Virus record (IMG/VR): IMGVR_UViG_2609459833_000016
Source of the DNA: a virus
Taxonomy: Duplodnaviria; Heunggongvirae; Uroviricota; Caudoviricetes
Strand: one strand, 5' to 3'
DNA length: 38,883 nt
How positions within the stretch are numbered: position 1 is the stretch's first letter; each line of letters opens with the position of its first letter. The notes under the pieces were generated by a model, which did no database searches, was not told the DNA's origin, and worked only from the letters and a program-made list of their open reading frames with translations. Shown here in pieces: positions 33,578-38,883 of the stretch. The translations under genes were made by a program, and so were the position numbers.

Positions 33578-34168
33578 TCATATGTTCAGGAATGGTGTTG
33601 TGAAGCGCTGCCAGATTTCTGACACGACCTTTGCCTGGTAAACGGCATCGCCCAGTGCAGTGTGAGCAATAGCCTCCTTTCCTGATCTGCCTGGCATTTT
33701 CCATCCAGTTGATTCAGCCATGGCGATAAGCGGGCGCATACAGCGCTCGTTCCAGTAGCACCAGGGGATGCTTTTTTCTCCGGCTGTGCGTGTTATGGCG
33801 GATTTCAGGATCGGGAAATCGAAGGATGCGCCTTTGCACCATATGGTCAGTGAATTGCCCGGGCTTTCGTCATGCATATTGCGTGAAATGAACGCCAGAA
33901 ATTCGGTTACTGCCGCAAGCTCTGTTCCCTCTGCGTTGCGCAGGCAGGATCTGGCCTCCACGGATTGTCCGGCCCACCATACAGCGGTGGCTGCATTGAC
34001 GGTTCCGCCGTTGCGTTCTGAATCCACCGGGTCGATGAATTTCTCAAACTGCTTGCCCAGCTTTCCGGTGAACGGGTCGAAAAACACCGCCCCAATCGCG
34101 AATATGGCTGCGCCCGGTCCGTTACCCAGTGTTTCGGTGTCAATCATGAGATGGTTCATTATGCGCAC
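33578..34168 (-). CDS. DEDD-family 3'-5' exonuclease (DnaQ-like)
   Basis: Exo I motif MIDTETLG and Exo III-like HTALGDAVYQ. Confidence 0.75.
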   Translation of the reverse strand: MRIMNHLMIDTETLGNGPGAAIFAIGAVFFDPFTGKLGKQFEKFIDPVDSERNGGTVNAATAVWWAGQSVEARSCLRNAEGTELAAVTEFLAFISRNMHDESPGNSLTIWCKGASFDFPILKSAITRTAGEKSIPWCYWNERCMRPLIAMAESTGWKMPGRSGKEAIAHTALGDAVYQAKVVSEIWQRFTTPFLNI

Positions 34169-34389
34169 CCCTTCAGTTCGTCTGGGTTGGCGAGTATTGC
34201 AATCAGTCGTTCAATGGCTGCGCAGGTTTCCTGTGGACAGGTGTGTGTCTCTTTCGCTGTCTCAGTCAGCTCGCGCAGTAATTCGCAGATATGTGCACGC
34301 TCGGCTTTTCTTGCGGCCATGCTGATATGCGCATGATGGTTAGCTGGTCTGGCGGTTATTTCTCTGCCGGGTGATTCGGCTGTTCTCAT
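34159..34389 (-). CDS. Hypothetical protein (76 aa)
   Basis: ORF upstream of and overlapping the exonuclease gene start. Confidence 0.4.
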   Translation of the reverse strand: MRTAESPGREITARPANHHAHISMAARKAERAHICELLRELTETAKETHTCPQETCAAIERLIAILANPDELKGCA

Positions 34390-34726
34390 TTGTTGACTCC
34401 TGAAAAAAAAGACAAAGGGAACCCGAAGGCATGAATGCCTTAATTAATTGCTCGTGTGTTTTCTGGTGTTATTCCGCGCCTGCTTTCGGCTTCAGGTTAT
34501 TCCCAGATCTTCAGGGCTAACCAGATAAGCGCACTCACCTGAAATATCACCCATACAGTGGCGATGGTGTGTATTGCTTTTACATTCTTCATAAGGTTTT
34601 CGCTTTATTTACGGCGTTTATCGCCGGTAAAGAATAATTCGATATCCTTCAGTGTGTGGATAATTCGCATAATGCCGATTGCCATAAGCACGGAGATAAT
34701 CAGAATTAGCCATGAAAGAAATACGC

Positions 34727-34966
34727 TCATGCGGCCTCCAGATTGTAGGGTTCTATGTTTCCGCCTTTTTCAATGTCTAATAACAGGTTGTTTATTTCGA
34801 TGGTGGCATCAATATCGTTAGCTGCCAATGCGGCCAGTGCCAACCCGTTCAGTCCTTGCATTAATGAATGCGTCTCCATTATGCGTATGAACTCGGGTAA
34901 TTTTGCAATGCGGTGGCTGTAAGCCTTAATGATCTGATTGACGATTTCTTTGTAATTTCTGGTCAT
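34727..34966 (-). CDS. Hypothetical protein (79 aa), AT-rich
   Basis: ORF in the AT-rich early-operon island. Confidence 0.45.
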   Translation of the reverse strand: MTRNYKEIVNQIIKAYSHRIAKLPEFIRIMETHSLMQGLNGLALAALAANDIDATIEINNLLLDIEKGGNIEPYNLEAA

Positions 34967-34984
34967 GGTTATTTTTCCTGTTGC

Positions 34985-35200
34985 TTAAAATACAATGGTA
35001 CTTGTTAACTGTATTATCTGACGTTCAATAGCTTTTTTTATTTCAATGGCGTCTGCTTCGCTTTTTGCGATGATTTCAAGCTTTATGTTTTGCTTCAAAA
35101 TCACATCTACTTCATTGAAAATCCTGACAACACAAGCAACATGTTCAGCGCTGAAAAAACCGTCATGGTGTTCAATATCTTTAATTTTGTATGTTTCCAT
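34985..35200 (-). CDS. Hypothetical protein (71 aa), AT-rich
   Basis: ORF in the AT-rich early-operon island. Confidence 0.45.
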   Translation of the reverse strand: METYKIKDIEHHDGFFSAEHVACVVRIFNEVDVILKQNIKLEIIAKSEADAIEIKKAIERQIIQLTSTIVF

Positions 35201-35213
35201 GTTTTCATCTGTA

Positions 35214-35537
35214 TCATTTAGCGTGAAAATTACGACCAGTCATTAACCGATCGACCGTTCTTAAGGCTTCAAAAAATGTGAAGTCCTGTCCGAAGTAATC
35301 ATCTCCGCGAGTCAGGGTAAAATTAATTCTGCCAGTAACAGGGCTACGAAAACTTTTGTGAATAACGATGCCAGTGTCGCCAATCGCCCAGGTGTGCTTT
35401 CCGGTTTGTTTTATCTGATGACCGTCTGGTGTGGTATGGATTTCAGTGGTTGCGGTCGCACTATTTTTACGGAAGTGCTGGCGTGCAACGTGGCGTTCGG
35501 TGTTGTTATTGATGCGTGCATTTCGTTGTTGCTTCAT
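35214..35537 (-). CDS. Hypothetical protein (107 aa)
   Basis: ORF with basic N-terminus. Confidence 0.5.
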   Translation of the reverse strand: MKQQRNARINNNTERHVARQHFRKNSATATTEIHTTPDGHQIKQTGKHTWAIGDTGIVIHKSFRSPVTGRINFTLTRGDDYFGQDFTFFEALRTVDRLMTGRNFHAK

Positions 35538-35610
35538 TCTTCACTCGGTCCTTATGCGATGATTACAGTGATTCGTCTCTTGTTAGCTTAAAAATCACTT
35601 CAGCCATGAC

Positions 35611-35757
35611 TTAGCTAATTACATCGATCCCCTGATCGGTAAGTGCTTCTTTCCAGGCCTTGCTTGCACGTGTTGGATCCAGTCTGCCTGATTGCTGTTG
35701 TATGATGATGAATCGTAAATCGCTGTATAAGTCTTTTGTTTGAGTGGAGTCAGTCAT
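35611..35757 (-). CDS. Possible small ORF (49 aa), not in the ORF track
   Basis: Hand-translated MTDSTQTKDLYSDLRFIIIQQQSGRLDPTRASKAWKEALTDQGIDVIS with an upstream AAGGTG SD; fills an otherwise empty 290-bp gap. Confidence 0.3.
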   Translation of the reverse strand: MTDSTQTKDLYSDLRFIIIQQQSGRLDPTRASKAWKEALTDQGIDVIS

Positions 35758-35824
35758 GTCAACACCTTCAAATCTTGATGTTTTTAATGAAACGTTTTCT
35801 TCATAGTTATGCTCGCTTCATTGT

Positions 35825-36028
35825 TTAGCTGTTGGCTATTGCGTCTTTTAACATAGCTATAAGGTTTACTTCTGGTTTTTCCATTTTGGCGCGTTTGGGG
35901 CGGATAATAATTCGACCGTCAGCCAACATCTTTTTGCATGTGTTAAGAGGAATGCCTGTTATCTCGGCGTATTTCTTCAGAGATACGTAAGGGGCATTAA
36001 CGTTGATGTTTATTGTTATACCTTGCAT
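35825..36028 (-). CDS. Cox/Apl-like excisionase-type HTH protein
   Basis: YVSLKKYAEITGIPLNTCKKMLADGRI resembles excisionase-type HTH; second gene of the early operon. Start taken at internal MQGITININ. Confidence 0.55.
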   Translation of the reverse strand: MQGITININVNAPYVSLKKYAEITGIPLNTCKKMLADGRIIIRPKRAKMEKPEVNLIAMLKDAIANS

Positions 36029-36032
36029 CCCG

Positions 36033-36251
36033 TTAACCTCCTGAGCATGAAGATTGGTTTTGCTCTTTCTGGATAATCTCAAGGCCACGAAGGAAGATCA
36101 TGCGTGCCATGTTAGAGGATGAGCGCTGTTCTTTAGTTGCCATTTCATCAATGACGGCTCGCTCTTCTGCTGACAATCGAAGTGCCAGTCGCGGTCCTGT
36201 AGCTGTGTTACGCGGAATCCGTGATCTGGTGTCGTGAACAACTTGTTTCAT
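36033..36251 (-). CDS. Ribbon-helix-helix (Arc/MetJ-like) regulator, first gene of the early operon (Cro-like role inferred)
   Basis: RLALRLSAEERAVIDEMATKEQRSSSNMARMIFLRGL has beta-strand/helix/helix RHH character; divergent from the repressor gene. Confidence 0.5.
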   Translation of the reverse strand: MKQVVHDTRSRIPRNTATGPRLALRLSAEERAVIDEMATKEQRSSSNMARMIFLRGLEIIQKEQNQSSCSGG

Positions 36252-36326
36252 AGTGGTATATTGTGTTCATCTAATGGCTCATGAAAGTATTTTGGTATCA
36301 AAAAAGATACCTGTCAAGGTTTTTGT
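36252..36326. promoter_or_regulatory. Lysis-lysogeny switch region with divergent promoters and operator-like palindrome GGTATC-N6-GATACC
   Basis: 75-bp AT-rich intergenic region between divergent starts; perfect inverted repeat GGTATCAAAAAAGATACC. Confidence 0.5.
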
Positions 36327-36731
36327 ATGAAAAATGATATTGGCCAACGGTTGCGTGAGGAAAGGGAACGGCTGGGTCTTAGCCAAGTCGCTATGAGTGA
36401 TATTGGTGGGGTTAAAAAGTTAACCCAACTTAGATATGAGAAAGGGGATAGCTTTCCTGATGCGGCGTACTTATCAGCGTTGTCGCGTTTTGGCCTTGAT
36501 GTTCAGTATGTCGTGTTGGGAATTCATTCACCTGAAACTTATAACGATGATGAGCAGGAGTTGATCACACGTTTTCGGAGTGCCTCACTAGATGTGAAAA
36601 ACGCGGTGATTGGTGCTTTGAAAGGTGCAGTCACTGAAAAGGAGAGTCAGTCATCAGGGGGAGGGTTAAATATCTCTGGCGGGAATAACCGCATCGCAGG
36701 CCGTGACTATAACGAAACAAAGGGTAAGTGA
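36327..36731 (+). CDS. C: Immunity repressor (XRE-family HTH, C/CI-like)
   Basis: N-terminal HTH (LREERERLGLSQVAMSDIGGVKKLTQLRYEKG); divergent from the early operon and same strand as int. Confidence 0.75.
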   Translation: MKNDIGQRLREERERLGLSQVAMSDIGGVKKLTQLRYEKGDSFPDAAYLSALSRFGLDVQYVVLGIHSPETYNDDEQELITRFRSASLDVKNAVIGALKGAVTEKESQSSGGGLNISGGNNRIAGRDYNETKGK

Positions 36732-36746
36732 TAGCAAGGAGGTGGC

Positions 36747-37391
36747 ATGACGGTCAACTCAAACGGTTCAGATAATCGTATTGCTGGGCGAGATTACCAA
36801 GAAAAGAATATTCAGATAGGGCGATATGATGGCTCTCATACCGTCAATATCGCAATTCCTTCGAGCAATAACAGTGATCCACGCCCCTTACTTAAGGGGC
36901 AACGGAAGGCATTAAATAGATTAGTTGCTGCTATTGTAGATGCCAGCAATACCGAGGCGTTTATTATTTGGCAAAAATTGCATGCAGAGATTGGTGTAGA
37001 CAGTATTGATGATATAACAATGAATCAATATAAGACCGCAGAGAGCTTTCTGTGTGCGATGCTTGAACGATGTAAAGATCATGATGCGCGTAAGGCGCTT
37101 GTAAGTATTTTACTTCGTAATAGTGAAGATGGAGTGCTTCGTCAAAAACTTATCCGCTATTGCCATATCAATTTCGGAACGGGTCGCTTAAACGATCTTA
37201 CTCGTTCTCAGCTTCAGATGGCTCTTTCCTGGTTAGACCAACAATCAGTGGAAGGAGAAAAGAAATTAACTGCCAACAATTCTGCCGGTAGTCAATTACA
37301 GATGAATTTTCAGCAAATAATTAGAAAATACCCGAAAGAAACAGGAATGTGTTTCGTTGTTGGTGTTTTATTAGGCAGTGTTCTTTTCTGA
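36747..37391 (+). CDS. Hypothetical C-terminally membrane-anchored protein (214 aa) downstream of the repressor
   Basis: Strong AGGAGG RBS; C-terminal hydrophobic anchor (MCFVVGVLLGSVLF); N-terminus repeats the NRIAGRDY motif found at the repressor C-terminus. Confidence 0.6.
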   Translation: MTVNSNGSDNRIAGRDYQEKNIQIGRYDGSHTVNIAIPSSNNSDPRPLLKGQRKALNRLVAAIVDASNTEAFIIWQKLHAEIGVDSIDDITMNQYKTAESFLCAMLERCKDHDARKALVSILLRNSEDGVLRQKLIRYCHINFGTGRLNDLTRSQLQMALSWLDQQSVEGEKKLTANNSAGSQLQMNFQQIIRKYPKETGMCFVVGVLLGSVLF

Positions 37392-37589
37392 TAGATAGTT
37401 GTTGGAGAAAGATATTATGACAAAAGCTTGCTTTACCGACTTTAAAAGAAATGAAAAAGATAAATTAAGCGAGCTGACAAAGGTGGGAGGGGGCAACTAG
37501 TGATGTAAGAAATGGTGTGAATTACTTGTTATGGTCTTAAAGAAAAGTAAGTCTTTGTTCATGAGGAAGTCCAAAGAGGTAAATGAATT

Positions 37590-37847
37590 ATGGTAACTAA
37601 TCCGCAAATTCCATTAATTGGTTTATATGTATCTAAAGTTAATCCATCTAATCGTATAGTTGTTACTAATGTTCATATTGTCAAGGACGATGACGATGAG
37701 CCCGGAGATCTTCCTTTCTATTTGGTTACTTTTGTAAATGAGGGGGATGAGGATGATATGTCGGCTCCTTCTTGGGAGCTTGATCCCGATGAATGGGAGC
37801 AGTTAGTTGATGAAAAGCTCTTTATGCGGGTTGAGCAACCATCTTAA
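37590..37847 (+). CDS. Hypothetical highly acidic small protein (85 aa)
   Basis: ORF with Asp/Glu-rich segments (DDDDEPGD, EGDEDD, ELDPDEWE) between the repressor region and int. Confidence 0.5.
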   Translation: MVTNPQIPLIGLYVSKVNPSNRIVVTNVHIVKDDDDEPGDLPFYLVTFVNEGDEDDMSAPSWELDPDEWEQLVDEKLFMRVEQPS

Positions 37848-37881
37848 TCACGAAAATTTTCCTTGGTGTGCACTTTTTAAT

Positions 37882-38883
37882 ATGTCTGTTCGTAAACTAT
37901 CTACTGGTAAATGGCTCTGTGAATGCTATCCCTACGGAGCAGCAGGAAAACGCATTCGTAAGCAGTTTGCTACTAAAGGTGAGGCGCTCTCTTATGAGCG
38001 CCGTTTAATGAACGGTAATTTAGGGGGCGAGTTTCAGGATGGTTCTGGCCCCCGTCTTTCCGAGTTGGTTGCTCGCTGGTTTGAAATGTACGGTAAAACG
38101 TTGTCTTCCGGTGAAGAGCGCAAGGCTAAACTTGAGGCGATTTGTTCTAGGTTGGGTGATCCGTTTGCTTCTCAATTTGATAAAAATATGTTTGCCATCT
38201 ACAGGGAGCGGCGGTTATCAGGTGAATGGAATCCAAAGGGGAAGAAAAAACTTAGTGAAGCAACCGTTAATCGCGAACAGTCATATTTACATGCTGTTTT
38301 TGCTGAACTGAAGCGCCTTGGGGAGTGGTCTGGTGAAAATCCATTGACAGGTATTCGCAAGTTTCGTGAGGAAGAAAAGGAACAGGCGTTTCTGTATGCA
38401 GATGAGATTGAACGCCTTCTGATTGCATGTGATGAGTCACGGAATAAAGATTTGGGTGTTGTCGTCCGTATTGGGCTTGCGACTGGTGCCAGGTGGAGTG
38501 AAGCAGAGGGATTAAAGCAATCTCAAATACTGCCTGGACGAATCACATTTGTTAAAACCAAAGGAAAGAAGAACCGCACTGTACCTATTTCACCTCAATT
38601 GCAGGCCATGCTTCCTAAAAAACGCGGGGCGCTTTTTTCACCATGTTATGAGGCTTTTGACGCCGCTATTAAGAGAGCAAAGATCGAACTTCCTGACGGA
38701 CAATTAACTCATGTGCTACGTCATACGTTTGCCAGCCATTTTATGATGCGGGGAGGAAATATTCTTGTGTTGCAAAAAATACTGGGGCATAGCGATATAA
38801 AAATGACTATGCGTTATGCACACTTTGCGCCGGGTCATTTAGAGGCTGCTGTTGAACTGAATCCCTTTGACAATAGAGGGTAA
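37882..38883 (+). CDS. int: Tyrosine-type site-specific integrase (P2 Int family)
   Basis: C-terminal catalytic region HVLRHTFASHFMMRGGNILVLQKILGHSDIKMTMRYAHF (R..H-x-x-R...Y); start chosen at MSVRKL; stop codon is the last codon of the window. Confidence 0.9.
   Translation: MSVRKLSTGKWLCECYPYGAAGKRIRKQFATKGEALSYERRLMNGNLGGEFQDGSGPRLSELVARWFEMYGKTLSSGEERKAKLEAICSRLGDPFASQFDKNMFAIYRERRLSGEWNPKGKKKLSEATVNREQSYLHAVFAELKRLGEWSGENPLTGIRKFREEEKEQAFLYADEIERLLIACDESRNKDLGVVVRIGLATGARWSEAEGLKQSQILPGRITFVKTKGKKNRTVPISPQLQAMLPKKRGALFSPCYEAFDAAIKRAKIELPDGQLTHVLRHTFASHFMMRGGNILVLQKILGHSDIKMTMRYAHFAPGHLEAAVELNPFDNRG

Follow-up and report, generated by a model that had tools for sequence, protein, structure and literature searches.

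We analysed a 38,883-nucleotide (nt) stretch of DNA (hereafter the window; IMG/VR record IMGVR_UViG_2609459833_000016, Caudoviricetes) that carries a P2-like prophage, the nearest phage record of which is Escherichia phage 520873 (Peduoviridae, Xuanwuvirus). Towards the right edge of the window, four genes follow one another on the plus strand: an immunity repressor of 134 amino acids (aa; 36327..36731), a 214-aa protein that we call the partner (36747..37391), an 85-aa acidic protein (37590..37847) and a tyrosine integrase of 333 aa (37882..38883). An original prediction, made from the letters of the sequence, had described the two genes between repressor and integrase as cargo occupying about 1.1 kb. 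The open reading frames (ORFs) and coordinates that it gave for the repressor and for the 214-aa and 85-aa proteins were confirmed, as were the spacing (1,150 nt from the repressor stop codon to the integrase ATG) and the co-orientation of both genes with repressor and integrase; a scan of the plus strand from the repressor to int found no terminator-like site. The cargo claim itself held for the 85-aa gene, which sits in a variable slot, but not for the 214-aa gene, which is a conserved partner that moves with the repressor. The 214-aa gene is thus not cargo. Repressor and partner form a portable two-gene immunity module, in which the C-terminal tail of the first protein and the N-terminal head of the second carry matching versions of one short motif. 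All of the evidence presented here is computational.

The tail motif of the repressor, ISGGNNRIAGRDYNETK, spans residues 116–132 (36672..36722, plus strand) of a protein whose C-terminus reads ...GGNNRIAGRDYNETKGK, and it is C-terminal in most of the enterobacterial homologues listed. The partner, the N-terminus of which reads MTVNSNGSDNRIAGRDYQEKN, bears its own version of the motif, SNGSDNRIAGRDYQEKN, at residues 5–21 (36759..36809, plus strand). Within this head, N10, R11, G14 and D16 are invariant in a 20-sequence family alignment (A1). The peptide NRIAGRDY, which had been noticed earlier at both termini, is indeed shared and is encoded by different codons, and the similarity extends past this octapeptide. 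The local alignment of tail and head scored 61, compared with 22.3 ± 4.8 for shuffled heads (maximum of 47 in 5,000 shuffles). In the best 14-residue match, 10 residues are identical and 0 of these 10 share a codon, and the nucleotide identity is 27/51; across loci, 34 of 101 identical residues share their codon. Recent gene conversion therefore does not explain the match and was rejected as its source. The same codon divergence supports the earlier proposal that selection maintains the peptide, rather than that the DNA was recently duplicated.

The two genes are also tightly juxtaposed. The repressor stop lies 15 nt from the partner start in the window, and the gap is between −4 and +32 nt in all but one of the 17 tabulated loci, the exception (L029) having 75 nt. 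Direct reading confirmed the strong ribosome-binding site (RBS) attributed to the partner gene, an AGGAGG at 36737..36742 (plus strand), 4 nt 5′ of the ATG. The repressor and the 214-aa ORF share one frame in the window, with TGA TAG and four sense codons between them (36729–36749). Other loci do not preserve this relation, and a read-through fusion of repressor and partner was rejected.

By homology, the repressor is an Xre-type helix-turn-helix (HTH) protein and kin of the BcepMu gp17 and KS10 gp13 repressors. Its HTH is followed by a helix (..FRSASLDVKNAVIGALKGA..) and then, past a Ser/Gly linker, by the tail motif and a basic end. The protein matches the phrog_8 transcriptional regulator family (3.8e-14), its HTH_31/HTH_3 and RstR/DicA-type matches lie under the curated cut-offs, and its homologues in KS10, KS5 and BcepMu are annotated as repressors. 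The P2 C-like repressor of the original prediction is not borne out by sequence: the best families are of the Xre, RstR and DicA types. A structure of P2 C exists, and a PDB sequence search with the window repressor at E ≤ 0.01 matched no chain. The locus resembles the P2 C–int operon in belonging to a Peduoviridae prophage and in that its repressor diverges from a Cox-like gene and shares the orientation of int. It differs in the two extra genes between repressor and int, in an early operon that starts with an Arc-like gene, and in a repressor that does not look P2 C-like by family matches and for which no PDB relative was found. In E. coli strain Bongo (NZ_CM153263.1), which carries a 96%-identical copy of the region, RefSeq lists a ‘uL18 family ribosomal protein’ that is probably a misannotated repressor; other strains list a transcriptional regulator.

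The partner combines the head motif with an Flk_N helical domain and a predicted C-terminal tail anchor. It matches phrog_5825 over its full length (5.6e-92), and PF27202 (Flk_N) is precomputed on the identical protein and on every listed homologue. The NCBIfam Flk model matches residues 38–168 (1.1e-15) with a score of 57.8, the equivalog cut-off being 353, and BLASTP aligns the partner with E. coli Flk at 27% identity over 123 residues (3e-09). An AlphaFold2 (AF2) model is all-helical, with predicted local distance difference test (pLDDT) values of 85–96 for residues 50–170, and its terminal helix forms the anchor. From the NCBIfam span and this model, we place the Flk_N-like helical domain at residues ~38–168 (36858..37250, plus strand). 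The hydrophobic anchor described earlier is present and comprises about 15 residues, GMCFVVGVLLGSVLF (residues 200–214, 37344..37388, plus strand), at a C-terminus whose hydrophobicity is conserved throughout the family. For the helical domain, no significant PDB fold or sequence match was found, a family profile search included. The family is of limited size; at 50% identity it makes up 139 clusters in a set of 1.84 billion representatives.

Partner and Flk have in common the Flk_N helical domain, the cytoplasmic orientation and the C-terminal membrane anchor. Flk, however, has two tandem copies of the domain in 331–333 residues and lacks the NRxAGRDY head, whereas the phage protein has one domain copy plus the head, is encoded by a repressor-linked gene and scores far under the NCBIfam Flk cut-off. 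On these comparisons, the partner is a single-domain, tail-anchored relative of Flk, a paralogue and not Flk itself. The defence role that had been suggested for the 214-aa protein did not hold up: the clear homology is to Flk, which has a non-defence function, and a PADLOC search at E ≤ 1 returned zero families for both the 214-aa and the 85-aa protein. As a separate observation, the 214-aa protein weakly matches phrog_245, ‘anti-repressor Ant’. This match is echoed by a 270-aa protein (P0227), in which an N-terminus that by eye resembles the Rha/antirepressor type is joined to part of an Flk_N-like domain.

Comparison between loci showed that the repressor tail varies strongly between lineages and that, within each locus, the partner head resembles its own tail. 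Tail and head read QIFNGDISGQFAGNQIINN and QEFNGTAQGQFSSRDIINI in a Pectobacterium locus (L018), KQTFHGSVGQSVAG and SQDFHGGVGQAAAG in L023, FHGAVSGGVAARDI and FQGNVDGGVAGRDI in L024, MVASGSGITQVG and MSASGFGIIQVAG in KS10 (L032), QEQVFHGSVGQAV and GKQEFNKPVGQAI in BcepMu (L033), and QQDFSAASIGQQVSGDV and DQKFSGEVGQVAGRDV in phiE202; matched pairs are also found in KS5 and RsoM1USA. Summed over 14 motif classes, the within-locus alignment scores reached 561, compared with 324 ± 32 after permutation, and 0 of 300,000 permutations attained the observed sum, a count that is not a true probability, with loci that are not phylogenetically independent. In 14 out of 14 loci, the 30-residue window of the partner that best matched the repressor tail was the N-terminus. 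Between classes, the first 65 aa of the repressor are 65% identical on average and the last 28 aa are 29% identical; therefore, the tail diversifies while following the partner head rather than the conserved HTH. Pairing and co-variation of the motif in related prophages, which the original prediction had proposed to look for, are thus both found.

The head is kept across very different partner bodies, namely Flk_N with a transmembrane (TM) segment, proteins with two TM segments, a Zn-ribbon with a TM segment, and a TM segment with a periplasmic Cys domain. Conversely, in Pseudomonas phage Dobby, our single negative control, a related repressor lacks the tail motif, and no gene with a head lies next to it. 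Burkholderia cenocepacia J2315 harbours both KS10 and BcepMu (PMC2628397), and their related repressors carry quite different tail–head pairs. This difference between co-resident phages fits orthogonal, pair-specific recognition.

The module is widespread. Repressor and 214-aa gene occur together in 519 of 5,426 complete E. coli genomes, in which the gene before int differs. Seven enterobacterial-type loci (Rosenbergiella, Enterobacter, Kosakonia, Hafnia, Arsenophonus and two from E. coli), drawn from several locus searches of which one gave 12 loci, carry the motif in both proteins, C-terminally in the repressor as ..GNRxAGRD[FY]NE.. and N-terminally in the partner as ..NRxAGRD[FY].E... The pairing is kept in L002 despite a different repressor N-terminus, and two degraded symbiont loci (L013 and L016) contain the motif in damaged form only. 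Partners of this family are frequent in Klebsiella, where one of them (P0084) is found on 754 contigs. Beyond P2-like elements, Mu-like transposable prophages (rve transposase, DUF3102, holin and SLT) encode a repressor homologue followed at once by a partner gene, and the same layout is present in the isolated phages BcepMu (gp17/gp18), KS10 (gp13/gp12), phiE255, phiE202, KS5 and RsoM1USA. In an inovirus-like contig (Rep_1 and a gene V-type DNA-binding protein), the repressor position is taken by a 239-aa fusion of an Xre HTH with Flk_N (P0255), for which hhalign gave a probability of 92.7% (E = 4.4e-07). We call the module portable because it is found in P2-like, Mu-like and inovirus-like elements.

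BcepMu gp17/gp18 and KS10 gp13/gp12 resemble the window in having an Xre-type repressor, with an HTH homologous to that of the window repressor, which is divergent from the early operon and followed directly by a partner whose head matches the tail. They differ from it in the sequence of the motif. BcepMu gp18 combines a TM segment with a C-terminus that is periplasmic and contains Cys; KS10 gp12 has no TM segment. The BcepMu record annotates gp18 as ‘membrane protein’ only; KS10 gp12 was entered as ‘hyp. protein, no sig. match’ in a description that does not mention the pairing (PMC2628397).

Over 552 residues of tails and heads, the motif is enriched relative to background in N (2.7×), G (2.4×), Q (1.9×), I (1.6×) and V (1.45×), and depleted of L (0.21×), K (0.37×) and P (0.42×). 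Bacterial amyloid motifs of the BASS families have been described as stretches of about 25 residues that are beta-prone, rich in Q, N, G, V and I and poor in K, P and L (Dyrka and colleagues, bioRxiv 10.1101/2020.01.06.895854). Amyloid motif pairs place the motif at the C-terminus of one protein and at the N-terminus of the protein that the neighbouring gene encodes, and signalling by amyloid templating has been shown for Bab/Agp in an E. coli prophage (bioRxiv 10.1101/2024.11.07.622273). The module described here shares with such pairs (fungal HET-S/NWD2, the Bell/NLR pairs of BASS1–10 and Bab/Agp of BASS11) the adjacent genes, the upstream C-terminal and downstream N-terminal motifs, the composition bias and the membrane targeting of one partner and, with Bab/Agp, the setting in an E. 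coli prophage. It differs in that a phage repressor takes the place of a Bell or HeLo pore-former as bearer of the C-terminal motif; in that small membrane-anchored proteins, instead of an NLR/STAND or TPR sensor, bear the N-terminal one; and in a conserved core that is shorter, at about 14–20 residues. The likeness rests on composition and gene layout. In several distant partners, the core occurs twice at a spacing of about 15 residues (NRAAGRDFNES...LIGRDIVNIS in P0122 is an example), which recalls the two repeats of HET-s. The finding may accordingly be classed as an amyloid-signalling-like motif pair with partner classes that are new to such systems or, alternatively, as a new type of coupling between a repressor and its partner. 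Within the literature library searched, we found no paper linking Flk-like proteins, amyloid motifs and phage repressors, nor one describing the tail–head pairing.

We consider it somewhat more probable than its negation that tail and head recognise each other directly by a beta-type interaction, which would couple the repressor to its membrane-anchored partner. Both are versions of one short, beta-prone motif in which N, G, Q, I and V abound, and they would associate by strand pairing or cross-beta stacking. A DNA-bound repressor would in this way be physically coupled to a protein that a C-terminal anchor keeps on the cytoplasmic side of the inner membrane. Motif–motif binding and its consequence are what we infer from the pairing, and the consequence could take either of two directions that the evidence does not separate. 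The partner may capture, sequester, inactivate or convert the repressor at the membrane, acting as a switch for induction or homeostasis; or the state of the repressor may gate the membrane protein, which would then be a repressor-guarded exclusion or abortive effector. A further-reaching version, to which we give only tentative credence, is that several phage families control or read out their repressor via a prion-like amyloid signalling motif. Clustered partner heads, or repressor tails on DNA, would then act as templates for the matching motif of the other protein, so that lysogeny would be switched off or, upon disturbance of the repressor, a membrane effector fired; lineage-specific variants of the motif would insulate co-resident prophages from one another.

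Several observations, in addition to the shared ancestry of the loci that qualifies the permutation result, weigh against direct recognition at the membrane. Tail and head match weakly in four classes (L022, L025, L028 and L029), with self-ranks of 3–8. No membrane segment is predicted for the partners of L027 and L029 (hydropathy scan) or for KS10 gp12 (sequence reading), and membrane tethering is therefore not universal. In the AF2 model, the N-terminal 45 residues of the partner are of low confidence, and the head, with pLDDT values of 43–52, is uninformative. For the lysogen, a single transcript running through the repressor and the downstream genes is a proposal drawn from the layout of the locus.

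Some of these points would suit other explanations. Low confidence in the head, together with the terminal position of both motifs, is what would be expected if a further factor common to both, for example a host protease or chaperone, read tail and head as tags and thereby degraded or handled repressor and partner together; terminal tags do control phage repressors, as with the Mu repressor and ClpXP. Yet the motif differs widely between phages of one host, for example KS10 and BcepMu in a single Burkholderia strain, while matching within each of them. Were it read by a conserved factor of the host, it should stay the same, and this explanation seems improbable to us. Rather unlikely, in our view, is a form of tail mimicry in which tail and head fit one and the same groove, for example in the Flk_N helical domain or in a repressor oligomer, and do not bind each other; the head would then be an intramolecular plug or a competitor, in the manner of an anti-repressor. 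This idea is weakened by the partners that lack Flk_N and nevertheless keep a matched head.

The view closest to the original prediction holds that the 214-aa gene serves lysogenic conversion or exclusion on its own, for instance as a phage paralogue of Flk that acts on the flagellar export gate, and that the motif is a relic of an old gene fission or duplication and has no role today. The homology to Flk, a membrane-located inhibitor of the flagellar secretion switch (PMC13344023), speaks for it, and the HTH–Flk_N fusion is compatible with an ancestral fission. A relic would decay, however, whereas the pair is kept and co-varies in at least 14 classes with synonymous divergence. The NCBIfam Flk score lies far under the cut-off, PADLOC gave no match, and the family is common in Klebsiella, as the 754 contigs with P0084 illustrate. 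Klebsiella is non-flagellate. We regard an independent gene as very improbable, and direct recognition between tail and head remains the reading that we prefer.

The 85-aa gene is genuine cargo, separate from the repressor–partner module, because its slot holds other genes in relatives and because the DNA leading up to it is AT-rich (G+C fraction of 0.32–0.35). The protein (37590..37847, plus strand) is named in RefSeq as DUF8087 (PF26332) and matches phrog_17127 (3.6e-43). Its family is very small, with 23 clusters, every one of which carries PF26332, and has an invariant EGDE.DM.AP core and conserved acidic runs. With 19 acidic and 5 basic residues, the protein has an isoelectric point of about 4.05, and this charge was the sole basis of its earlier description as a DNA mimic. 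Although strong acidity is a feature in common with Ocr/ArdA-type DNA mimics, no sequence or fold similarity to them was found. The local Pfam, NCBIfam and PADLOC libraries returned no match. The AF2 model (mean pLDDT of 77) contains several beta strands and one helix, and a Foldseek search of the PDB gave nothing at E ≤ 0.001, the top matches being EF-P- or Tudor-like barrels at E > 1. The DNA-mimic idea is, as it stands, neither supported nor excluded. In relatives, the genes in the slot (L007:4635-5513, L010:4663-5538, L003:4726-5073 and L006:4653-5387) include those for a DUF2511 periplasmic protein, a BRCT-domain protein, proteins that partially match the PADLOC candidate PDC-S48, and unknown membrane proteins. 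In these P2-like prophages, the interval between partner and integrase resembles a hotspot for cargo or defence genes. In the window, a 27-codon ORF, MTKACFTDFKRNEKDKLSELTKVGGGN, with a GGAG-type RBS also lies at 37417–37500, in AT-rich DNA that separates the 214-aa gene from the 85-aa gene.

The integrase, which starts at ATG 37882 on the plus strand, matches Int_N (6.3e-32), Phage_integrase (7.6e-23) and phrog_1 (2.6e-77), and its stop codon is the right edge of the window. The left edge is host DNA, with pgsA at 1–549 and genes for tRNA-Gly, tRNA-Cys and tRNA-Leu at 701–1003, and in other E. coli strains the region adjoins yecA and tyrP. Because host pgsA and the tRNA genes form the left edge, we place the prophage at the tRNA cluster between pgsA and yecA. 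An ORF for a phage Ogr-type zinc finger lies at 1635–1937 on the minus strand, and no Tum-like gene was evident between ogr and the attachment end.

Upstream of the repressor, a consensus scan gave a weak promoter-like site, TGAACA-16-TATATT with TG (36235..36262, plus strand), as a candidate lysogenic promoter, and a second site, TTGACA-17-CAAAAT (36289..36317, minus strand), as a candidate for the promoter from which the early Arc-like and Cox-like genes are read. The two sites (36235–36262 and 36317–36289) face each other; the number of promoter-like consensus matches in the region is not above that in shuffled sequence. Arc-like and Cox-like genes are annotated at matching positions of the divergent operon in the record of phage 520873. 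A 72-aa ORF on the minus strand (36033–36251), whose counterpart position is annotated as an Arc-like repressor in that phage, overlaps a 45-aa ORF on the plus strand (36100–36237) that RefSeq lists as a hypothetical protein; it is likely that no more than one of them is real. LexA-box-like patterns, as a sign of SOS control, were at chance level (4 compared with 3.9 expected), and a search for Rfam elements in 34000–38883 gave no match at E ≤ 0.1. Phage 520873 (L004, NC_049344) is the sole phage-database record that contains the module. Its Flk_N gene is unannotated and was recovered by tblastn in three pieces, and its integrase is annotated as two coding sequences.

P2-like and BcepMu-like repressors are small and lack an autocleavage domain, and little is understood of how such phages sense when to exit lysogeny or of the way in which they protect the lysogen. 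The pairing of tail and head suggests direct recognition of a manner not yet described for lysogeny control. A tail–head motif that co-evolves would provide a concrete physical link, open to testing, from the genetic switch to the cell envelope, and its lineage-specific pairs are a potential set of orthogonal short interaction tags. If the motif does act by amyloid-type templating, amyloid signalling would reach past cell-death effectors to the transcription factors of ordinary enterobacterial prophages.

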